Positions 9,284-64,000 of a DNA stretch of 64,000 nucleotides are shown piece after piece. Under the pieces are notes generated by a model, which saw only the letters and a program-made list of their open reading frames with translations, had not been told where the DNA came from and did no database searches. Both the position numbers and the translations under genes were made by a program. Numbering within the stretch: position 1 is the stretch's first letter; each line of letters opens with the position of its first letter. This stretch comes from Chiloscyllium plagiosum (taxonomy: Eukaryota): contig NC_057733.1 in assembly GCF_004010195.1 (NCBI RefSeq), forward strand, positions 52,066,228-52,130,227, read 5' to 3'.

Positions 9284-10126
9284 GTATCCTTAGTGCTTGT
9301 CTGGCCTCGCTCTTTGCGGCCGCCATTAGACAGTGGCAGGCCGCAGGGACACAAAGACGAGGAAGGCGACCGGGCCTCTGCAGGAGAGTGGGGGGGGGTG
9401 GGTGGATGCGGACTGGGGGCCTTATGAGGCGGCCTGTCGACCCTGATTCCCGGGGAAACTAGACAATAATGAAATAGGGCTGTGGTTATAACCAGAGGAG
9501 AAAGTGAGGTCTGCAGATGCTGGAGATCAGAGCTGAAAATGTGTTGCTGGTAAAGCACAGCAGGTCAGGCAGCATCCAAATCTGCTGTGCTTTACCAGCA
9601 ACACATTTTCAGCTGTGGTTATAACCGGCAACGTTAGCGACTTGTGTGTTTGGGGCGGAGGAGAGGAAGAGGTGACCATGTGCAATTTATATGACTGTGG
9701 GAAGAAGCCGCCTCTGTTTTCACTGTAAAATGGCGTCATGGTTTGTTTTTCCTCCTTGCTCAGTTCAGGATTACTCAGACTTGACTTTATCCCCAATGGC
9801 CACGGCCGAAAGAACTGCTCGTTTTAAAACAAAAGCTAGGCTAGCGATTCATGTGTGGAATGGCAAATCTTCATGCATTGACATGTTAAGAGTACCTTCC
9901 AACGCTTTCCCCTAAAACTGTTGTTCTTTTGAACTACATATTGTCGTTTAAAAACAAAGATAAGATGGGAGATTTCTAAGATGCGGCCGTTTAGATGGGC
10001 TGCCAATCTAAACTGTATTGGTTGCATGGTAATTTCATTTGGATTGGAATGACTAGTTTTGTCTGCATAGTATGTGTTCGTATTCTATTTCTTTTTGTTT
10101 CCATTTCCTTGACCACAGATGTCCAG
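9284..10126 (+). other. ZNF207: U12-type (minor spliceosome) GT-AG intron
   Basis: 5' splice site GTATCCTT; branch site TTCCTTGAC at 10105-10113, with the branch A 14 nt before the end of the 3' AG; no pyrimidine tract between them. Confidence 0.93.
9494..9614. mobile_element. Penelope-derived fold-back insertion (family A) with 15-bp TSD
   Basis: Perfect 33-bp inverted repeat at 9531-9563 / 9582-9614; GCTGTGGTTATAACC at 9479-9493 and 9612-9626. Confidence 0.85.
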
Positions 10127-23227: not shown

Positions 23228-23470
23228 AGCCAGCAATCTGTTTCTGGACCTGTGGGTACGGATTTTAAACCCCTCAACAGTACGCCTGCTACTACTGCAG
23301 AACCTCCAAAGCCCACATTCCCAGCATACACACAGTCAACAGCTACTGCTACCAGCACGTCAAGCAGTTCTACAGCCAAACCAACCATCCCTGTAACTAG
23401 TAAGCCTGCCACTCTAACTACAACTAGTGCAACTAGTAAGTTGATCCATCCAGATGAGGATATATCTCTG
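23228..23470 (+). CDS. ZNF207: ZNF207 exon 9
   Basis: SQQSVSGPVGTDFKPLNSTP...SATSKLIHPDEDISL; donor GTAAGT. Confidence 0.96.
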
Positions 23471-31627: not shown

Positions 31628-31797
31628 GTCAGTATGGTGGTCCGCCACAGGGCATGCCAGGCTACCTCCCAGGTGGCATGCCTCCATACGGACAGGGACC
31701 TCCAATGGTGCCCCCTTACCAAGGCGGACCCCCTCGGCCACCAATGGGAATGTCAGGAATGAGGCCCCCTGTAATGTCACAAGGGGGTCGCTACTGA
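31628..31797 (+). CDS. ZNF207: ZNF207 exon 11 (last coding exon)
   Basis: GQYGGPPQGMPGYLPGGMPPYGQGPPMVPPYQGGPPRPPMGMSGMRPPVMSQGGRY*. Summed CDS is 1458 nt = 485 aa + stop, with all phases consistent. Confidence 0.97.
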
Positions 31798-32198
31798 AGC
31801 TGGTGTACCTACGTTAATAGGTTTGGAGATTCAACCTTTTCTCAACTTGCTGTTAACTAGACAAGCTTCAGTGAATATAAGTGACTTTAACTTTTTTTTA
31901 AGAAAAACCTGGTAAACCTCTTCTGTCTGCTAATGATGACCACAAAAACGTGCAAAACCCTGGGACGTGCTGTTGTTTGATCACAGTAGCGGGGAAACAA
32001 AAGAATATTCTTGAAAGCAAAATCTTGATGAGTGCCCTCCCCAATTCCCCTTCCCTCTAAACCTCTTCTTCCCCTCCCTCTTCCCCCCCTCTTCTCCCTT
32101 CTCCCCCCACCCTTCCCACCTGAGTCCCCATGTAATTGCAATTCATGTTGTATAGCTTCTTCTCTCATGTTTCATCTAGGTTTTTAGAAGTGAAGTAT

Positions 32199-32655
32199 AA
32201 TAAATATGGTCCATTTATATAATAAAAAAATTGAAGGCGCTGGAGTTACATGAACATACAGTACCACCTTTAAAGGCAAGTTCTGTAAATTAAAATTTGC
32301 TTTTGTATTAAAAACAAAAGTGAGGCCTTCGCAGCACTCTAAGTGCTGTTGGACTTTACTGTCCCCAACATTGTTTGGTGAGGGCTTCTGGTGTAATTGC
32401 TTGTTGCAGCACCAAATTTGTGTTCAGTTGAGTTTTGATTATGTAACTGTTCGACGTACCTCGTATCCAGGGTTCAAAGAGACCATTTAGAACCTGAATA
32501 GGTCGTACCTGATTTCTTAATTTCTGTACTGTTGTAAAGCTCATTGTAATAAAACTTGATGGAAACATTAATGTTGCTTTATTCATGACCAGCTATGGAT
32601 CACTGCTTCAAGGTTTGTACCACTGCATGATACTGCAATTTAGTGCAAAAATAAA
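32199..32655 (+). terminator. Candidate ZNF207 polyadenylation signals
   Basis: AATAAA at 32199, 32221, 32548 and 32650. Confidence 0.55.
32322..32388 (+). ncRNA. Four-way-junction RNA structure, copy 1 (ZNF207 3' UTR)
   Basis: Closing stem GAGGCCTTCG/TGAGGGCTTC; hairpins CAGCAC/GTGCTG, GGAC/GTCC and CCAA/TTGG; only TT is unpaired at the junction. Confidence 0.75.
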
Positions 32656-33002
32656 AGTAAGAGCATTGGAGGGGGAATTTATTGTTTATGCTTTTGAATG
32701 AACCAATATTTAAATCTGTTTATCTCTCTGCATGCTTTAATTTAGCCCAGTACGCATTAAATCGTTCATACTTGTGGCAAACTAGGTCAATAAGCAACTG
32801 AAAAACAATATATATAAAAACCTTTCTGAAAAGATTGTGGAGTGAATGCATGGTTTATGGATGTAGAATTGACCACCCTAACGTTTTTCTAAAATTGGAA
32901 TTTATTTCTTCCTTCCTGTAGCCCTGCCATGGGACAGGCTGAGGCTGAATCTTATTGTCCTCTCAGTCTGAGGCAAGTCAGATTTCATTTTATTCCTTTC
33001 CA

Positions 33003-33075
33003 GGGGCTTTCACAGCTTTTTATGGCTGTTGGATTTCTCTGTCCCCAAACTTGTAGCAAGTTTGGTGAAGGCCCT
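33003..33075 (+). ncRNA. Four-way-junction RNA structure, copy 2
   Basis: Closing stem GGGGCTTTCA/TGAAGGCCCT; hairpins CAGCT/GGCTG, GGAT/GTCC and CCAAACTTG/CAAGTTTGG; same TT linker. Confidence 0.75.
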
Positions 33076-34379
33076 TTTTTAAAAATCTATTTTTAGTAAC
33101 GTATCATGTTGTATTGTGGTTGTATTTGACTTTAAAGCAAAGTGCTATTTGCTGGATATGGGAGCCTAATGCTTGGAGAAATTACAATTTATTGTTCCCA
33201 TATATCTAAATTATAATTTCTTTCCCATTTTAAACAGTTTTCCAGAATGCACAGACTGAGAAGCTGGTGGGGTCAATGGCATATCAAGAGAGATTACACT
33301 TTCAAATTTGTCCAGTTTTTAAAAATATTTTCATTTCCTTGTATCTGGCAAGTGGGACGTTGCTTGGGCTGCACTGATCATTGAACTCTGAGGTCAGAGT
33401 GATGTTACATGTCATAACTTGAACTCTGTCTCTAAGTATTTATACATAGTATAACAACAGAGAACTTGTTACATAAATCGAATATCTAGCGCAGCCAATA
33501 TAGTAGAACTGAAATTGAAACTCCTCTTGTTATTAGCTGCAATTTTATTGCCAAAGTGTTTCAAAAATAGCCTATAGGTGATCCTATGAGCTTCTGTTCT
33601 GATCACCGATGTTTCTTGTGCTCAGTAGATTTTGGGCAATTATCATTATTGCTGCTCCTCTGTACGTTGAATTTCACAGCTGATCATAAAGCCCTAAGGA
33701 TAGGCAGCATAATGGGCACCTTACCCATCGACCCCAGATCGTGGGAAATGGGTCAGCATGAGCTTTTTTAAAAACATTGTGATGCATCTCTATGTGGCAT
33801 CATGCGCATGCTCAGATGATCACTTGTGGTCCTGAGTTTTTGGAGTATTTTAACAATTAGCATTTCCTCCTAGAGCAAGCTAATTAAAATTATGACCAAG
33901 CTGGTTAAAAATCTATGGTGAAAGAAAGACATCACGTGTAGAGATGAGGGCACCTCTTCCATCCCACCCCGAAAGTTAATCCAGAGACAGTTCAATTGTT
34001 TAAAACCGAGATATTTGGACACTGAAGGAATTGCAGAATAAAGGTAGGAGTTTGCATTTGGAACTAGCATTGTCTGACAAAAATCACATGACTGACTAAT
34101 GACCCCTCCCTTTCAGTGTACACTTGATCAAACTGACTGTGATTTCTTTGCTGTGGCATTTGACATGCTGCTTCTCATCAGTATCCAGAAGAATCTTCAT
34201 TCCACTTTTTCAAGTGCACTTGCAAACAAATTGCACCAGTCAACTTTTAGATGAGCATATCGAGACTCTTGGCTCAGTCTTGTAGTACAGAAGGGGTATG
34301 TTTGACCTGCAATTCCCACGCTAGCTCTTAGAGAGCTGACTAGTTTCATTCTCAACTATTTTCTCTTTCTAAACAAAAA

Positions 34380-49770: not shown

Positions 49771-50150
49771 TTTTTTTTAATAGATATTTTTATTAGAAAT
49801 TTAACATTTTTACAAGTTTACAAAAATAAACAAAACCCTCAAGTACAAACATTGATATACAATTAAATCTTAAATATATAATAGCCAAAATTTAACAAAA
49901 GAAAAATACCGAGGAAAAAAACAAAACTCAATCTAACTACTAATCTAACCTACAACTAACCAGAGTGTATATTTAAGTCTCTTACATTATTCAAATAAGA
50001 GAAAGAGGAAAAAAAAAACAACTGATAACCCAGAAATTGGGTAGTGAGATACATACTCGGAATGTGTTAACATCAAATGTAAAAAAAACCCGTATTCGTG
50101 CGGGATTCCTCTCTTAAGGGGCCCTGGACCAGCCAGGTTCGTAATCTCAA

Positions 50151-52341
50151 TTAAATAAAAGCCCTTGTTAGGATAGCCAAAATATCTGTATTCATATAAT
50201 TCAAGAAGGGCTGCCATATTTTATAAAATAATTCGGTCTTTTGGTGCACCATATTTGTAAGGAAGTCAAGGGGAATACATTCCATAATTAATCTGTGCCA
50301 ATTTGAAAGTCCAGGGGGGCCCTCAGTCACCCAGTTTACCAAAATATTTTTCCTTGCACAGAAAGAGAGAATAGAAAATAGTCTTTTCCCGTGCATGTCA
50401 AGGGAGGGAAAGTTCGAAAAGCCCAAAAGGAGAGATACAGGGTCCACTTTAATTTCAGTTCCTAAAATTTCTGTCAGGGTACTTGCTACTTTAGTCCAGT
50501 ATCTACGGATCTTATGACAGGTCCATAGGCAATGTACAAGAGTGCCCACCTCTATTTTACATTTGGGACACATTGGAGATGCTCCTGCCTTAAATTTTGC
50601 CAATCGAGCCGGTGCTATATGGGCCCTACGAAGTATCTTTAGCTGGATAGCCTGAGTTCTGTTCAGTTGGTGATTCTTCTGGCGTTTTCCCAAATGTCAT
50701 TCCACATTTCTATAGAGATTTCTAGTCCCAATTCCTGATCCCATGTTTTAAGCAGATTGTCCATATCTCCCGATACTTCATCATGTAGTAAATGATAAAT
50801 AGTACTGATGGAGGATACCCCCATTGGTCGTAGTACTCTACATTCTCTATCTGATTTATAAAGACTATCTAATAACGTGGTCTTGTTCTGTATATAGTCT
50901 CGAATTTGGAAGTATCGATAGAGGTCTCCATTAGGTAATCCGAATTTCTGACGCAGCTGTTCAAAAGACATCAGGGCCCCATCTTTAAATAGGTCCCCTA
51001 GACATGAGATACCCCTGGATCTCCAGAGTTTAAAAGTGGTGTCTGTAAACCCCGGTTGGAATCCCCATGCTCCCACTATCTGCGCATAGGGGGATGTTTT
51101 ATGTGAGTTGCCCTCATTTTGCCACATTATATTCCAAGCTTTAATGGTGTTTATTATTATAGGGTTTTTACAGTGATCCGTAATGATTTTCCTCTAGTCT
51201 CGATACTAACGTTTTAGAAAGGATTTTAAAATCTACATTTAGCAAGGATATTGGTCTGTATGACGTACAATCTTCTGGGACCTTTGCTTTTATAAGGATA
51301 AGAGAGATATTTGCCTCTTTCAGCGAAGGCGGGAGACAGCCCTGACTGTATGCGGAGTTATACATGTCCATAAGTGGACCAGCCAATATTCCTGTAAATT
51401 CTTTATAGAATTCAGCTTGAAAACCATCTGGGCCAGGTGCCTTACTGCTCTGAAGTTGCCTGATTGCGTCAAGTATTTCTTGGACTATTAGGGGAGCATT
51501 TAGGACCGATACCTGTTCCGGAGTTAGGCCCGGAAAGGTCAAATTTTTCAAAAATGATTGCATCCTCCTAGTCCTGTCTTCACAATCCTGCAATTTATAT
51601 AAATTAGAATAAAATTTTTTAAAGATTGCGTTAATCTTTTTATGATCATGAGTCAAAGTACCCCTGCTTTCCTTGATAGACGTGATAGTTTGAGGGGCCT
51701 TTTTTTTCTTTGCAAGAAATGCTAAGTATCTACCCGGTTTATCGCCAAATTCATATAGCCTTTGTTTTGCAAATAATATTTCCCTCTTAGCCGTTTGGGT
51801 AAGCGTAGTGTTTAGAGCTGTCCTAAGGGCCGTAATCCTTTGCAATGTAATAATAGAAGGTCTATCAGCGTATGCTGTTTCAGCTGCTTTTAAGCGAGCT
51901 TCGAGCAGATGCTGCTGTTCTCCCTTTAATTTTTTCTGGGTCGCTGAGTAGGCGATGATCAAACCTCACGCGTAAGCTTTGATGGTCTCCGACATCATTG
52001 ATGGGTTGCCCGGGGGGGGGGCAGTACAAATTTAAAATCCCATATTCCTCTCCATTTATAAGGGCTTTAATCAGATTTGTCTGATTTAGGATTTTGAAAG
52101 GGAAATTCTTCCGAACAAGAATAACAACTCCCCTACTTTTTGAGCTAAAAGAAGAAAAAAAGGCCTGATCAAATCCACCCTGTCGTAATTTCAAGTGTTC
52201 TTTATCCAACAAGTGTGTCTCCTGTAGGAGAGCTATATCAACTCTTTCTTTCTTGAGGTTTGATAATATTTTCTTCCTTTTGACTGGCAAATTACTCCCC
52301 TTGACATTCCACGTGCACCACTTAACTGACTGATCAACCAT
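50151..52341 (-). pseudogene. L1 ORF2p remnant lacking the RT catalytic core
   Basis: TWNVKG...LLQETHL (endonuclease); KAPGPDGFQAEFYK and YRPISLLNVDFKILSK; then a jump near 51190 to the C-terminal region with CPKC...HCLWTC. Confidence 0.85.
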
Positions 52342-53112
52342 AATCATCTGGGCAAATCCGAGATCCCTCGGGAGGGGAAACCTTATGCAGAACATCCCGA
52401 GCGTAGAGCATATAAAATTTACAAAAATAAAGGCTCTCTAATACACTAACAACAGTATAATAAAAAAACTACTTCTAAATAATAAAAAAAAATAAAACTT
52501 ATTTAAATGGAGATTTTCCCCCTTGTTCCCAGGGGGTATCACTTCCTTTCCAAAGGTCCATCGTATCCTCTCCCAACCAATGCCCTACCCTTGACCCAAG
52601 CGCTCCTCAATAGGATGAGGAGAATTCAGATATAATACAAAACTAAAATTAACAGTGAACACCCTACCCCCACCCACACCAACACCTGGATATATTTGGT
52701 AATGTTAATACCATGTATAAACATATATAACTATAAAATTACAGCCTCAACAAATAATAATTAAATATAATAATACAAAATAACAAGGGAAAACAACCCC
52801 GCTCCTAGAGACAGGTAAAATAGAATAAGGTAACCACCTCCCCCCACCAACATTAACTAAACCCCCTGACTTATACACACATGCACATACATACATATTT
52901 ATATTTATACATACCCACATACATACATAGAAGAACAATTAAAAAAAACAACCCCAAGGGGGGGAGAAAATCGTTAAATAGAGAACAAATAAATAAATCC
53001 CTTTCCCCACCCCCCACGATAATATTAAACAGTAAGGTAAGAAAAAGGGGGGGGGGGGGGATATAAACTGGAGTGGGGGAAAGGCAAACCAACATCCATT
53101 ATTTCTTACAAT

Positions 53113-53969
53113 TTATTTAAGAGAGTCGAAAAATTCCTTAGCCTTTTCTGACGATCCAAAGTTATACACGGATCCTTCATGGTTAAAGCGTAGTGTCGCT
53201 GGGTAGTGTAAGGAGTACTGAATGTTTAAGTCCCTTAAACACTTCTTCGCCTCATCGAATGCCTTCCTCTTTCGGACCAGAGCTGGGGAAAAGTCCTGGA
53301 ATAACAGGATCTTGGATCCTTTATAGATCGTGGCTTGGGAATCTTTTCCAAGATTTCTAGAGGCTTCCAGGAGTAACTGCCTCTCCCTATAGCTCTGCAG
53401 CCGAAACAGGACCGGGCGTGGGCGCTGGTTCGAGCCGGGCCCGCGTATTGCGATCTGGTAGGCCCATTCTACCCTTACCTGGCCTGATCCAGCTTCCAGA
53501 TCTAAAAGCTGTGGCAGCCACTGCTCGAGAACCGCTGTAAGCTGGCCTTCCTCTTCCTGTTCCGGAAGCCCCAGCAAACGAATATTTTTTCGATGACCTC
53601 GATTATCGAGGTTGTCAATGTGATTCTCTAAGGTTCGGACTCGCTGTTCGAGAGTCCAGACCTGATCCACGGCCAATTGCGCTGTAGTTTCGGAGGTCGC
53701 GGCCTTTAGCTCCGCCCCTCCGACTCGGCGCTCGATTTCTTTAATGTCTCAATCGTGCTTTTGCAGCGCGGCCGAGAGTGAGTCCCATCAACTTCGGGAT
53801 TCTTCAATGAAAGCATCGATCTTCGCATCCAGTTTGGAGATGATTTCCACAAGACTTTTCACTGTAGGTAAGTCCCTCGAAGCGGCTGCGGACGCCTCTG
53901 CTGCAGCTGGAGAGGGTGGGGAGGGGTTCCTGCTTGCTGAGAGCTGCGGGCTCCCTTCCCTTTAGTCAT
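53113..53969 (-). pseudogene. L1 ORF1p (coiled coil, RRM, CTD), frameshifted at the 5' end
   Basis: ATG at 53969 (MTKGKGARSSQQ); LENHIDNLDNRGHRKNIRLLGLPE, RPRPVLFRL, ILLFQDFS, YSLHYPATLRF. Confidence 0.85.
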
Positions 53970-57978: not shown

Positions 57979-58614
57979 CTGAAAAATAAAAGTGTTAGTT
58001 GGTCAAACAGAACACAAGAACCAGCTTGGGTTATTTACTCCTTTACTACATCTTATTTTGATGATGCTGTGTTTTCACCCTACTGTGTTCTTGTTTTCAA
58101 AAGTCAGAATAGCTGAGGATTTTCTGAGCCAGGAATATGTCTGAATTGGACAATCATGAAGACTTGGTGAGAATGTGGGATGCCCTCTGGTCCATGGGAA
58201 GTGGGGTTCTAGGTTCAGGTTTGCTCCCATTTCTGTGCTGAGGCGATTGTCTCAGATGCGCCAGTTAGAGGCATTAGAGTCTGCACCCCAAACCACAGAA
58301 TTGAACAACATACCGGGCAGAGGGCTGGTCTGGCATACTGTCCACCGGACAAGGCAAACGTATCATACAGACACGATGACCCGAGTGGTGAATAGCTCCT
58401 GATGCTATCTGGCTGCAATTATTGCTGAAAAACAGCAACATGGAATCATATACCAATTTCACGCAGAACTAGCCCTGTCAGCCTATTGGCTGTGTGATAC
58501 TGTGGTCCTATCAGTGTAACACCCAACTCCCTCAAGTATCTGGGCTGTGTTGGATTAGCACGAGGAACACAAAAAGGCATGTTAAAATCAGAAGTTTAAA
58601 ATTGTGGTTCTTAC

Positions 58615-58843
58615 CTGTGTAATCTTGGGAGCACATTGGCTTGAATATCACTTCTTTGAAAGCTACAATCCATTCCTTGAGATCCTGAGCATCTTTGCAG
58701 GTAAATACAAACTTCCGCTCTGGCGTCTCAATCGTTATCCCCAAGTTCCATTTATTGCCTTTCACACCGGGTGGGAGGCCCTCCAGAATATTATACCCAT
58801 ACTGTGAATGCCCAATGAACACCTCGCCTTGTGCATAGGCATC
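58615..58843 (-). CDS. ADAP2: ADAP2 exon (second PH domain, C-terminal part)
   Basis: DAYAQGEVFIGHSQYGY...GITIETPERKFVFTCKDAQDLKEWI; 229 nt; donor GTAAGA. Confidence 0.92.
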
Positions 58844-59149
58844 CTGAAAGAAAGAACTTTGTGAAAAGCGCTGTTAAGCTCAATGTCCCAAAGGTTTTTG
58901 CCATCAGTAAAACTGAAGTGACTGCGGGAAACCCAATTTGTGCCCAGCCTGGCTCCTCCCACACAGCAATGTGACCATGACCACATCATTTGTTGATAGT
59001 GAGTTCTGACAGAAGGATCTTTGATCAAAAATGTGAATTCCATATCATTCTTCATGCAAATTCCCAGATTTGCTGAGGATTTATTTCCAGCATTTCTGTG
59101 ATTATTTCAGATTTCTGGTGTCTGTTGTGTTTTTTCATGTCTATTACTA

Positions 59150-59470
59150 CTTGTGGTAGGTTCACGGATAAATTGATTGAATCAGGATACAGGGAAAGGC
59201 TCACTGTTCTTCTTTGACGTCGTGTCATGGGTTCTTGTATGACTCCTTGCAGGGACAGTCGGGGCTTCTGTTTAACATCTCCTCTGAAAGACAGCATCTC
59301 CAACAGTAAAGCACTCCCTCAGTACTGCCCTGGAGTGGAGCTTAAACCCACAACTTCCATCTTGGTCAAGACAGCATGCCAGCCTTCGGCAAGTCCAATA
59401 TGACAAGGAGGAAGATGGGGCAATAGCTAATCCCGATGATCCCACAGTGAAAACACATGACACTGAGCCT
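59150..59470 (-). mobile_element. Deu-domain SINE (AmnSINE1/SacSINE1-like)
   Basis: Minus strand CAGTACTGAGGGAGTGCTTTACTGTTGGAGATGCTGTCTTTCAGAGGAGATGTTAAAC matches the recalled Deu domain. Confidence 0.7.
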
Positions 59471-60401
59471 CACCAACCAATAGGGATTTCGATTTCAAAT
59501 TACTCCTGTGGGAAACTGATGCTATCAGATTATCTGTCAATTGATAACAAACACAGAGCAGCTGTTCAGATTGTGTTAGGGATAATGTGTTATCACTGAA
59601 TTAATCTGCCAGAGACCCTGGCAAATGATCTAGGGACACTGATTCCAATTTCACCACAGCAGCACTTGGAATTGGAATTCAATGAATTAATCCGGAATTG
59701 AAAAAAAAAAGTCTTGATATGTGAGTTTTTTGAACTGTATTCCTCAAAAGATGGTGGCAACAGAATCCTTGACTGTTTTTACAGTAAAAGTGGATAAAAA
59801 GTTATCAGGGAAGAAGCTAAAGATGTGGAGTAATCAGATTGCAGTAGTTATAATGCCAGATGGTGTTAATGTGGGACAATTAAGGAGCCCTGGCTGACAG
59901 ACATAAACAGGAGTGTCAGGGCTTCTGTTCACTGAGCTGACTCTGAAGGAGCTGGACCAGTGTCAAAGACTTTGCACGTGTAGATAAAGGGTGACTTTGT
60001 GTTGGGATACTCTGTGGAGTTATTTCACACATCAGTCTTGACCTCTTTGAATGGTATAGCAGGCACAAGGGGTAGAGTAGCCCACTGCCCCTGTTATACT
60101 TTTAATGTTAATTTTCATGTGTTTACATTAATTTATATTAACAGCAAGATATTTAAAGATCCCATTGAGCCAATTCCTTAAAATAGCCTATGATTCATTT
60201 AGCATCTCAGTAACTCTTCTCACCTCATCTGAGGAACAATCATGTCAAAGGTTGAGAGGAATCGTGTTCTTGTTGCCATTGTATGAATCTTAGATCAATC
60301 TGACACCAACAGTGGTGTACTTCATTGAGTGATGTATCAGCCCTTGGGTGTTTTGCTGTCCCTGGCATGCTTCGACAACTACTGCCTTTCTGAGCACTTA
60401 C

Positions 60402-60479
60402 CAGCGGTTCCTTAAAGTACAGCAGTTTACGATCCTGAATATCCAGTGTGAACCATCTTCTCTTAAAAGGTTCCTTTTG
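60402..60479 (-). CDS. ADAP2: ADAP2 exon
   Basis: QKEPFKRRWFTLDIQDRKLLYFKEPL; the QKEPF motif and 78-nt length favour ADAP2 over ADAP1. Confidence 0.92.
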
Positions 60480-60619
60480 CTGAAGGAAAGGGCCATACTT
60501 CAGTTTATTTCTATGGTATATGATGAAATTTCTGTCTTTTTGACACTTGAATGCTTTACATGTATATTTAGTTTTCTTAACATTTTAATATATATCAGAC
60601 GAAATAAGGTTCAATTTAC

Positions 60620-61340
60620 ATAGAATTACATTATAGAAGTGAGTCTTTCAACACTTGACCCATGCTGATGTTTCTAGTCCACAAGCCTCCTTCACCTTAC
60701 TTGATCTGACCACAGCTCTGCATCATTCTTTTCCTTTTCCCCCTCAGATAGTTATTGAGTTTTCCCTTGAATGCATTTCCCTTATTTTTTTGTTCCACGT
60801 TCCTTAAGATGATTTTGCTAAATTTCTTTAGTAACTGTCTGCTTGGTTTGGTCACCAACAAATAGAAACATCTTCCCTATCAAACCTTGGAGATAAGATC
60901 TTCAGCCTGTTCATCCTTTACCAAAATTTTAAAATGTTCTAGCTATGATTAATGTCCTTGCATTTGCCTCTATGTACTACTTAAAATATGGAGTTAGAAT
61001 TCTATTCTGAATGTGATGTAACCAAGATTTATATAAGTTTACTCCATCCCCTTGCCACACTCCATCTTCAGAATAAATACCAACCTTTCCTCAGCTACAG
61101 TCAGTTCTGAAGGAGGGTCATTGGACCTGAAACCTTAACTCTGCTTTCTCTCCACAGGTGCTGCCAGACCTGCTGAGCTTTTCCAGCAATTTCTGTTTTT
61201 GTTTCTGATTTCCAGCATCTGCAGTAATTTGTTTTTTTGTTTAATACAACTTCTCTGCTTTTCAATTCCATCCTTCTCAAAATGAATCTCAGTGCTTTAT
61301 TTGTTTTATATATAGCTTTAGTGTTCTGCATTAGTCCTTT
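60620..61340 (-). mobile_element. Old CR1 remnant with a nested MER6-like/Penelope-derived tail (~61095-61230, plus strand)
   Basis: KTNKALRFILRRMELKSREVVL; the insert CTGAAGG-A-GGGTC-ATTG-GACCT-GAAAC is a degenerate hammerhead. Confidence 0.6.
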
Positions 61341-61799
61341 CATAAATTCCTACCTCCAAGATAGAGAGGGATTCCTGATCAGAGCTAGTATGGTAAGGTG
61401 ATCCTCCAAATTCTCCTCGTATCCTGAGTGCGCTAGCCAGAGAGAATGCTCTGGAACATCTGACATAAAAGCAATGACACTGCTGACCAGAGCACTTGAA
61501 TGTTTGCTATTCTGTGTCTACTGTTCTGGGAATCTCCCTTGACGGCGATATAGTTAATTGATGATTCTAGTTTTATTGCAAGAGTTGTTGACTATATCCA
61601 AATTTCTGGATCATATTTTTAAAAAGTATTAAAAATTAATTTCAAATTCCTGAGAAAGCCTTCCTGGAAAGACTACTTAAACACCAACTAATCTCACCCT
61701 TCTGTACGCAATTAGATTTTGTAGTCTTAAAGCAGAGAAGAATACATTGTATAGTGTGAGATATAAAGTTCCTCAAATTTTGAGAGTGTCATGTATTTT

Positions 61800-62110
61800 A
61801 TTAGATTACTTACAGTGTGGAAACAGGCCCTTTGGCCCAACAAGTCCACACTGACCCGCCAAAGCGCAACCCACCCAGACCCATTCCCCTATGCTTACCC
61901 CTTCACATAACACTGTGGGCAATTTAACATGGCAAATTCACCTAACCTGCACATTTTTGGATTGTGGGAGGACACCGGAGCACCCGAAGGAAACCCATGC
62001 AGACATGAGGAGAATGTGCAAACTCCACACAGTCGCCTGAGGCGGGAATTGAACCCTGGTCTCTGGCACTGTGAGGCAGCCGTGCTAACCACTGTGCCAC
62101 CGTGTCGCCC
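61800..62110 (-). mobile_element. HE1/V-SINE, full length, young
   Basis: High identity to 15545-15850. Confidence 0.9.
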
Positions 62111-62216
62111 CATTTTAGAAAAGCAGGAGGCTGGAAGAACACAGCAATTCCATGAAAGATTTACCATTTCTACAATAAGCGCATCATATTTATTCTGTAA
62201 TGCACAATGTACATAC

Positions 62217-62279
62217 CGTGGGGCCAGTTTTCTCCATATATCCCTCCTTTAAATAATTTCTCGTTAATTTTGGTATGAG
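62217..62279 (-). CDS. ADAP2: ADAP2 exon
   Basis: LIPKLTRNYLKEGYMEKTGPT; 63 nt; donor GTATGT. Confidence 0.92.
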
Positions 62280-62599
62280 CTGAGAAAATAACAATATAAA
62301 AATCCATCAGTTCAGTAGACACACTATACAGACACATGAAACAGTGGTCCAGTCGTGGTCCTTTCTCACAGCTACCATTAGCTCATTTTAATTCTTCCAT
62401 CTAGGGAGATCTGAATCCTGTTGCTGAACTGACTTCCCTGTTCCCAGAGGTATCCTCATGCTACCTCATGCTATCATTTTAAAAAGTGTATTCTAAGAAT
62501 TCAACTATTCTCGTTAGTTCTGGGGTAATTTCCCCCTCAATCAAACATTTTCTAAACCATTTGTAAAGCAGCCTCCAGACTCTATAATGTGAAGTATGT

Positions 62600-62910
62600 G
62601 GCTCTGTTAATGTATGTATAAATTTGTGAAAGTATCTATGCATATATCTGTATATACTGGTATTTGCATAGTGTATTTTGTGCATATGTACATTTCAAAG
62701 CCTGTGTTTATGCAATTGTTTGTGTTATTCATAGTGTCTTCATCTGGAAGTGTTTATGTATGTCCATATGTTTGTATCTTTGTGTGCATGTCTGTGCGTA
62801 TCCATGTGATCGTGTGTGTGTATGTGCATCTCAGTGTGTGTCCATGGCTATGTCCATAGATGTATCCGTCCGTGTGCATGGCCTGGTGGGTGTCTATGTG
62901 CATGTTATTG
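62600..62910. repeat. Degenerate (TG/TA)n low-complexity tract
   Basis: TGTGTGCATG / TGTATGT-rich sequence. Confidence 0.8.
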
Positions 62911-63136
62911 AACAGGGTTGCATAGGTGGAGCCAGATAAACTCTGATAGGATGGTGGGCACTCGGAGTAGAGGGTGTAAATGTGCAGGTGATGTAGAAGA
63001 TCAACAGTGTTGTTGTTGAATGACCAAGCAAGTCCAAATGGCCTACTCTACATTTTATGTGTTCATTTACGTTATGTGTTTCTCTGTATCTTTGCAGCTC
63101 TTTGTCAATATATGATTCACACATATGTGAGCTCAC

Positions 63137-63220
63137 CTCTGTGTCACTGGTTGTAGGGAAAGCATTTTTCAGATATCTGAAACGGGCTGCCCTGATTGCA
63201 TTGAACCAATCCACAATGTC
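63137..63220 (-). CDS. ADAP2: ADAP2 exon
   Basis: DIVDWFNAIRAARFRYLKNAFPTTSDTE; 84 nt. Confidence 0.93.
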
Positions 63221-63234
63221 CTAGGAACAAAACA

Positions 63235-63530
63235 GGAGAGTCAGTCATTAGGACTGAGACAGACAGACAGAGAAAAAGAGGGAGAGTCAGCATTGAGTGA
63301 AAGTCAGTTTTGGGGCAGAGAGAGAGTCAATATAGAAAGAGGGTCAGTATTGAGACAGATAGACTGGGAGAGGGAGAGTCATGTCGACAGAGGGTCAGTA
63401 TTGAGAGTGGATTAGTACTTGAACAGAGAGTGAGAGAAGGTCAGTATTGGGACAGACAGACAGACGGTGGGGGGGGGGGGGGGGGGGGGTCATATTGAGA
63501 GTGGATCAGGATTGGGACAGAGAGACACTG
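63235..63530. repeat. Degenerate GA-rich minisatellite with a G21 run (63469-63489)
   Basis: Recurring AGGGTCAGTATTGAGA(CAGA)n units. Confidence 0.75.
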
Positions 63531-63588
63531 AGGAATGTGTAGCTTCTGTTTGCTGTGGAGCTTTTGAGGCTGTTAGACCCTCCCTTAC

Positions 63589-63735
63589 CTTGCCGTTTTT
63601 GTGGTAGACAAACATACTCCTGGTACGCCCATCTTTCAGGTAGGTGATTTGCAGCCCATTTGGATTGCCAATTTTTTCTGGCTGGAATGTGGCATTAAGC
63701 TCTGACACGTGAATGACTCCTTTTGGCTCTTTATC
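63589..63735 (-). CDS. ADAP2: ADAP2 exon (first PH domain); upstream exons lie beyond the window
   Basis: DKEPKGVIHVSELNATFQPEKIGNPNGLQITYLKDGRTRSMFVYHKNGK; 147 nt. Confidence 0.93.
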
Positions 63736-64000
63736 CTGTTAAAACAGATTGTGTTGTTTCATTTGTAACACCTCTGCCTGCTTTCCTCTTCTCACACTGT
63801 ACTTGTGTGGTTTCTCCATGGGATATCAGATCCTGAACAGCTGGAATATCGGAATTATCCTGAAGGAGTCAGCCTGGGATGAAATGGAGTCGAGCATGGG
63901 AGAGATGGAGAGATGTGCAACTATGGAATGACATCTGCTCTTTTCATGTCATCTGTTTTTTTTTTAACAGATTCCAAGTAAACAAAATAAATTCGTAATT

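Follow-up and report, generated by a model that had tools for sequence, protein, structure and literature searches.

What do two cloverleaf-shaped RNA folds do downstream of the stop codon of ZNF207? The question is raised by a 64,000-nt stretch of the genome of the shark Chiloscyllium plagiosum (here called the window; features lie on its + strand unless noted otherwise), in which the original prediction placed a duplicated four-way-junction element that it could assign to no nameable RNA family. It also mentioned a similar segment in the human ZNF207 3' UTR, and the element turned out to have been described already. In Fig. 6 of their 2006 EvoFold study, Pedersen et al. (PMC1440920) presented a pair of clover-shaped folds in human ZNF207, for which the passages on the pair give no function. 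Among the long clover-shaped predictions of that eight-genome screen, the two ranked first and fourth; the shorter fold is part of the 3' UTR, and the longer one is intronic in a splice variant (PMC1440920).

The shark and human pairs agree in the gene, the presence of two copies, the clover shape, the near-identical central stems, the differing loops, and the greater length of one copy. They differ in spacing, since the human copies are less than 3,500 nt apart and the shark copies are separated by 680 nt. In the shark, copy 1 comes before a likely poly(A) signal and copy 2 comes after a predicted splice donor (donor B below). By gene, number, shape, and published description, the shark pair is almost certainly orthologous to the human pair. 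The passages of the 2006 paper that deal with the folds do not mention GC donors, small exons, or decay. No later work on the function of the ZNF207 folds was found in the literature searched, and the 2011 EvoFam paper may list the family. ZNF207 is absent from the searched supplements of PMC11310781, PMC6547761, and PMC1440920, and "ZNF" does not occur in the text of the 2026 RLM-Fam preprint. The folds themselves are known; their link to GC donors and stop-carrying exons, which is the subject of this report, was not found in print.

RESULTS

Two cloverleaf folds lie downstream of the ZNF207 stop codon

The host gene is ZNF207. The exon at positions 23240 to 23470 matches a Chiloscyllium punctatum protein with 100% identity, and its identity to mammalian ZNF207 is 84%. 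The last coding exon (31628 to 31797) ends at a normal TGA stop (31795 to 31797), and the end of this exon matches the canonical GGRY-type C-terminal tail found in 269 of the 340 proteins compared. The predicted element is located downstream of this stop. Further upstream in the same gene, the donor of intron 1 (at 9284) reads GTATCCTT, and the acceptor end, at about 10100 to 10125, holds a TCCTTGAC word; judging by the consensus, this intron looks like one of the minor-spliceosome (U12) type. The exons at 58500 to 63750 (-) presumably belong to a neighboring gene for a PH-domain protein of the ADAP/centaurin-alpha kind, and the long broken reading frames at 50150 to 53750 (-) are presumably those of a LINE retroelement.

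Folding confirmed the coordinates and the shared architecture of the two predicted segments. Copy 1 (32322 to 32388, 67 nt) and copy 2 (33003 to 33075, 73 nt), spaced by approximately 680 nt, both form a four-way junction, and in each copy this junction is both the minimum free energy (MFE) structure and the centroid (-32.1 kcal/mol for copy 1 and -35.6 kcal/mol for copy 2). The stability z scores, -3.56 and -4.71, with 1/200 and 0/200 shuffled sequences being as stable, are flattered by the fact that the folded segments were cut around the folds themselves. When 6,392 windows of 80 nt were scanned on both strands, a tight four-way MFE structure below -22 kcal/mol was obtained for six. Copies 1 and 2 ranked as the two most stable among them, and another was the reverse strand of copy 2. 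In each copy, the closing stem consists of standard pairs throughout (10 of 10), and hairpin 3 has 4 bp in copy 1 and 9 bp in copy 2, in agreement with the 10-bp stem of preserved pairing and the lengthened hairpin 3 claimed for the element. According to these folding models, both cloverleafs are real structures.

Other details of the predicted architecture required revision. Two junction registers fit all four copies now known (two from the shark and one each from a bird-like locus and a teleost-like locus described below). An invariant unpaired TT, as originally drawn, is compatible with all four copies, yet its register is the less favored one: pairing of the junction purine with the first U has a probability of 0.59 to 0.83, compared with only 0.10 to 0.32 for pairing with the U after hairpin 3. 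Similarly, the 6-nt loop ascribed to hairpin 2 is true of the shark, but the same loop has 5 nt in the bird-like copy and 4 nt in the teleost-like copy. The flanks of the two shark copies are dissimilar base by base, as had been noted, with 10/30 identities upstream and 14/30 downstream, but they have one motif in common, the GC donor AG/GCAAGT. At the foot of copy 2 (32985 to 33004) there is a pyrimidine tract followed by CAG, with no such tract at copy 1, and P0027, a gene model from the titi monkey, seems to enter by splicing at this place. The closing stem of copy 2 could mask an acceptor at its foot.

The cloverleafs have no Rfam or tRNA match. Across the whole 64-kb window, no Rfam family reached its gathering score. 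Between 31700 and 34000, two matches alone were returned, with E values of 5 to 7, and the shark and bird-like regions gave chance-level E values of 5 to 9. No tRNA was predicted, and the element has neither a T-loop motif nor a 3' CCA. No C/D box pair was found, and a box-C-like word occurs solely after the teleost-like copy. The earlier statement that the element is not a tRNA and matches no RNA family therefore holds for Rfam and for tRNA prediction.

The cloverleaf is conserved in distant vertebrates

Metagenome contigs were scanned with the last coding exon, and 2 loci were obtained from 198 candidate stretches. Judging by their peptides, one locus is probably teleost-like (L005) and the other bird-like (L006). 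When the shark pair was the sole input to the model, it found one copy in each, scoring 57 bits in the teleost-like locus and 60 bits in the bird-like locus; the E values of these copy 1 matches were 3e-15 and 3e-16, respectively. Both copies fold as the same cloverleaf, with z scores of -4.35 (teleost-like) and -1.63 (bird-like). Copy 1 has 48/69 positions identical in the three loci. In the alignment of all four sequences, 40/77 columns are invariant and cluster at the junction, while all three loops vary, also in length.

In this alignment, 95% of the stem cells are paired, compared with 38 to 54% when the partners were slid, and three pairs change on both sides. The covariation itself, measured on four sequences, is suggestive but not significant, since 29 and 38 of 500 shuffles reached the observed values. 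Copy 1 recurs in the bird-like and teleost-like loci with its junction core fixed and its loops free. The original view that ZNF207 has a conserved RNA structure acting in cis and maintained by selection is upheld. The proposal that the element is recognized by its shape covers only half of this: because the invariant columns concentrate at the junction, the junction sequence matters too.

Copy 2 and exon B (see below) were not found within 4.5 kb past the stop in the bird-like locus or within 0.96 kb in the teleost-like locus. The read-through peptide of the titi-monkey model P0027 aligns to the translation of copy 2 with a score of 63, which was reached by 0/300 shuffles. The element is confined to this gene in the searches performed. 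A DNA search of the shark genome with each copy returned just that copy, the core pattern with all three hairpins had two genome matches, both at ZNF207, and the element model found no third copy in the 64-kb window. A looser pattern picked out a third site, L004:1466-1542 (-), which carries the core words of hairpins 1 and 2; being without hairpin 3 or the closing stem, failing to adopt the cloverleaf fold, and having a model E value of 2.1, it was dismissed as a chance match. Wider element patterns had no match among viral contigs or prokaryote genomes.

Each fold follows the GC donor of a small exon

The motif shared by the flanks marks the end of a small exon on either occasion. Exon A (32180 to 32275, 96 nt) ends at a GC-type donor, donor A, which reads AAG/GCAAGT (32273 to 32281) and is identical at 10/11 positions (-3 to +8) in the three loci. 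Exon B (32922 to 32972, 51 nt) ends at donor B, GAG/GCAAGT (32970 to 32978), which is predicted in the shark from sequence. Of nine positions compared, the GC-donor word is complementary to the 5' end of shark U1 at 7. Upstream of each GC donor lies a pyrimidine-rich acceptor, and these sites delimit exons A and B. A unit consisting of an acceptor, a small exon, a GC donor, a U-rich spacer, and a cloverleaf thus occurs twice in the shark, and unit 1, along with the poly(A) signal, is kept across three vertebrates that are only distantly related.

Three-way identity is concentrated in islands: 55/96 positions of exon A are identical in the three loci, compared with 32/281 in the spacer preceding it and 31/151 in a second spacer. 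The order of donor A, exon A, the fold, and the poly(A) signal is kept in the teleost-like and bird-like loci while the spacers drift. The consensus GC-type donor AGGCAAGT occurs three times in 128 kb (both strands), and two of these occurrences lie within 50 nt before a cloverleaf; its expected frequency under a dinucleotide model is about 0.002 per 100 nt. This adjacency of donor and fold was noticed after the fact and was then borne out in the two new loci. The distance from donor to stem is 45 nt for copy 1, 29 nt for copy 2, 35 nt in the bird-like locus, and 69 nt in the teleost-like locus, and the four intervening spacers are 38 to 63% U. Sequestration of the donor by the fold was considered and rejected, since no pairing between donor and fold was predicted and the pairing of the donor differs among species.

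Exon A has the makings of a poison exon. In phase 1, the phase in which the coding donors would enter it, it reads Gly-Phe-stop, with the stop 88 nt before donor A. The corresponding exons of the other two loci are 80 and 85 nt long, with the stop 72 and 80 nt before the donor, so that an in-frame stop falls within three codons, 72 to 88 nt before the donor, in all three species. In all three, exon A has the features by which a poison exon is recognized, namely, predicted splice sites and a stop located over 50 nt ahead of the next junction. Exon B, for which phase 1 entry gives an Ala-Leu-Pro start, does not qualify in the shark: its stop ends 1 nt before donor B, and that junction alone would therefore not trigger decay.

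The shark has no GT directly after CAAG, the donor that human and crocodile isoforms appear to use, and the upstream donor in the shark is therefore uncertain. Candidates read from the sequence are a site 23 nt past the stop, a site at 31912, and the donor of the penultimate exon. A conserved post-stop block (31816 to 31850) contains a donor-like TAG/GTTTG, 23 to 25 nt past the stop, as a candidate; 33/35 positions of this block are the same in shark and bird, and 19/35 are common to all three loci. From 31816 to 31862, the donor-like word is followed by a pyrimidine run and AG, possibly another splice site pair. A long hairpin is predicted over this region in the teleost-like locus, and the shark and bird folds differ. 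Past copy 2, the first strong candidate acceptor is at 33238 and is a possible partner of donor B.

A conserved AATAAA (32548 to 32553; 10/13 positions in all three loci) is the likely poly(A) signal of a short mRNA. It lies 273 nt after donor A in the shark and 244 and 284 nt after it in the other two loci. Sixty nucleotides past this signal is a conserved donor-like AAG/GTTTGTAC (32610 to 32620; 11/12 positions in three loci), with a CAG before it in shark and bird (32595 to 32620). This word is a possible micro-exon or U1 site.

Taken with the folds, this arrangement narrows the range of functions first suggested, namely, stability, localization, or processing. A cis-acting RNA is upheld; since both copies follow the GC donor of a conserved exon, however, the context indicates a role in splicing and 3'-end choice rather than in general stability or localization.

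Gene models in other vertebrates are consistent with use of the exons

Four of the 340 proteins compared, all of them database gene models, point to splices of exon A or B. P0123 (UniRef J3QRS9; human and 30 boreoeutherian records by UniRef name) and the crocodile model P0041 end in VMSQ-ALP, which corresponds to the start of exon B, and the frog RefSeq model P0067 ends in GF, which corresponds to the start of exon A. The tail of the eel model P0110 aligns to exon B. When exon A was joined to exon B at the predicted donor and acceptor, this tail scored 70, the best of 1,556 pairs; the runner-up donor-by-acceptor pair scored 47, the exon A part alone scored 45, and a donor shifted by 3 nt scored 65. 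P0110 is named only as a "hypothetical protein." Gene models from hamster, newt, and arapaima read through the exon A sequence, which speaks for conservation and not for splicing. Annotation, and annotation only, supports splicing of exons A and B and of donor A in other vertebrates.

The fold is not a recognizable copy of U1 or U11

The four-way geometry of the element had been called snRNA-like. Model searches gave this idea no support: the shark U1 locus contained no match to element model R2, nor did the U11 gene up to an E value of 2, and the Rfam U1 model gave no match on the cloverleaf. The pairwise score against shark U1 was reached by 0 (bird-like), 31 (shark copy 1), 102 (shark copy 2), and 138 (teleost-like) of 1,000 shuffles and by 5, 20, 262, and 31 of 1,532 natural windows, which amounts to eight comparisons made after the fact and not independent of each other. 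Shark U1 (L007:189-352) shares two short words with the part of the element between hairpins 1 and 3, alike in order and spacing. The words common to U1 and the cloverleaf sit in different helices. With no structural match and marginal sequence scores, a mimic or derivative of U1 or U11 was rejected, and the likeness to U1 is kept as a weak lead only.

DISCUSSION

The reading that we prefer, and that the sequence leaves evenly poised, is that the cloverleaf promotes the use of a weak GC donor and in this way diverts the ZNF207 transcript to unproductive, decay-prone forms, likely as feedback. By default, donor A would be ignored, the mRNA would end at the 32548 signal, and copy 1 would be part of the 3' UTR. 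If donor A were used instead, copy 1 and the 32548 poly(A) signal would leave as intron, and a junction would remain 72 to 88 nt past the exon A stop. Nonsense-mediated decay usually obeys a 50-nt rule for a junction downstream of a stop, and at that distance the exon A junction would be a decay signal. Donor B and copy 2 would then pose the same choice again at the next exon. Beside a weak donor, a fold whose core is fixed would most simply be a docking site for a factor that sets donor use. GC donors are described as depending on extra enhancers (PMC3167603), and intronic tRNA-like cloverleafs can enhance splicing (PMC7722341). As for whether the fold helps or hinders the donor, we favor enhancement, with about equal chances of being right and wrong; a brake would belong to the reading with an unspliced donor taken up below, a reading that has perhaps one chance in four.

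The least certain step is the identity of the factor that would read the junction core. ZNF207 itself, or its U1 complex, may fill this role, a suggestion that falls somewhat short of an even chance. ZNF207 is the natural candidate sensor because its zinc fingers bind U1 snRNA and U1-70K and because it promotes poison exons, driving their inclusion in LUC7L, LUC7L2, and SNRNP70 (PMC12952242). Autoregulation by ZNF207, one of the functions named in the original prediction, would fit the known activity of the gene. More speculatively, the cloverleaf might be a ligand of the ZNF207 zinc fingers that replaces the U1 junction region and loads ZNF207 at the GC donor, with self-silencing as the result. 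In that case, an RNA sensor present in duplicate would have persisted between sharks and humans, and GC donors would have an enhancer of a new kind; we regard this specific version as tentative and rather unlikely. Overexpression of ZNF207 alone gave minimal genome-wide splicing change (PMC12952242), which counts against a strong feedback loop, and the string "autoregulat" does not occur in the text of that paper.

Splicing at donor A is not the only route by which such a layout could act. A second reading, possible though clearly the less probable, is that the GC donor ahead of the poly(A) signal stays unspliced but is occupied by U1, which together with ZNF207 either keeps the short mRNA in the nucleus for decay or prevents use of the poly(A) site; the role of the fold would then be to tune U1 occupancy, possibly as a brake. 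A precedent comes from reporters whose 3' UTR has a 5' splice site ahead of the poly(A) site: their nuclear retention and decay need ZNF207, and tethered ZNF207 lowers reporter output (PMC12363940). The short ZNF207 mRNA has the same layout, with 244 to 284 nt from donor to signal in three species, and 269 of 340 annotated proteins end canonically. On the other hand, the conserved acceptors, the in-frame stops, and the isoform ends that fit the splices all argue for splicing, no conserved poly(A) signal was identified past copy 2, and the reporters, as described in PMC12363940, apparently had no GC donor. The unspliced-donor route can run alongside the splicing route, and both give negative feedback.

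The main reading of the original prediction, an ordinary 3' UTR element that acts in the cytoplasm on stability, localization, or translation and has nothing to do with the nearby donors, appears improbable to us. Copy 1 does lie within the 3' UTR of the likely main mRNA, in human by description (PMC1440920) and in the shark by the position of the signal, and its conserved junction core and free loops would suit such an element. That reading leaves unexplained, however, why a GC donor precedes both copies, and precedes copy 1 in three species, and why the second copy is placed past the conserved poly(A) signal and, in human, within an intron (PMC1440920). A small RNA cut from the transcript or from a spliced-out intron, as happens with mascRNA and intronic snoRNAs, would account for a compact, stable, cloverleaf-like fold that becomes intronic once the donors are used, but the lack of a tRNA call, T-loop, C/D pair, 3' CCA, or Rfam match, together with the variable loop lengths, makes it very unlikely. 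Finally, a neutral local duplication or repeat remnant, which two similar copies 680 nt apart and nonsignificant covariation might suggest, is refuted in the main by conservation and is scarcely credible, given 48/69 positions the same in three loci, 95% of stem cells paired versus 38 to 54% when slid, an element unique in the genome by pattern, and its top rank in the eight-genome screen (PMC1440920).

What is new here is the fixed position of the folds after the GC donors of conserved stop-carrying exons, which makes an orphan prediction testable. If the proposed fold-aided use of GC donors is true, it would reveal the feedback by which the level of ZNF207, a U1 helper with links to progerin splicing and mitosis, is set, and it would supply a natural RNA ligand for mapping what the ZNF207 zinc fingers read. 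It would also illustrate how a structured RNA can act as an enhancer of GC donors, the selection of which is little understood. Targeting the fold or the donor with an antisense oligonucleotide would then offer a means of tuning ZNF207.

Autoregulation through alternative splicing coupled to nonsense-mediated decay (AS-NMD) is familiar from TDP-43 and from the USSE of U11/U12-65K. Poison-exon and 3' UTR-intron systems of this type have also been described for RBM39 (PMC10477243) and hnRNP A2/B1 (PMC3091714). What such cassettes share with ZNF207 are conserved early-stop noncoding exons, weak splice sites, and splicing, in ZNF207 only predicted, that either removes a poly(A) site or leaves a post-stop junction. 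ZNF207 differs from them in that its unit is duplicated, its donors are of the GC type, and a four-way-junction RNA stands by each donor; its feedback is putative.

Two further comparisons concern the fold. The MAT2A 3' UTR hairpins, which are read by METTL16, and the polyadenylation-inhibition element of U1A are copies of a recognizable piece of an snRNA. Like the ZNF207 folds, they are repeated 3' UTR structures, through which an snRNA-binding protein controls splicing or 3'-end formation; unlike them, the ZNF207 fold is linked to neither U1 nor U11 by model searches, and its sequence resembles that of U1 only weakly. The cloverleaf can be likened to these elements by analogy only. The nimtRNAs (PMC7722341) are, like copy 2 in human, intronic cloverleafs, and in their case the shape is needed to raise splicing. 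They are of mitochondrial tRNA origin, whereas the ZNF207 fold is not called as a tRNA, has an invariant junction with free loops, and is conserved across jawed vertebrates. The ZNF207 unit, with its putative feedback, is best classed with the feedback cassettes of splicing factors.
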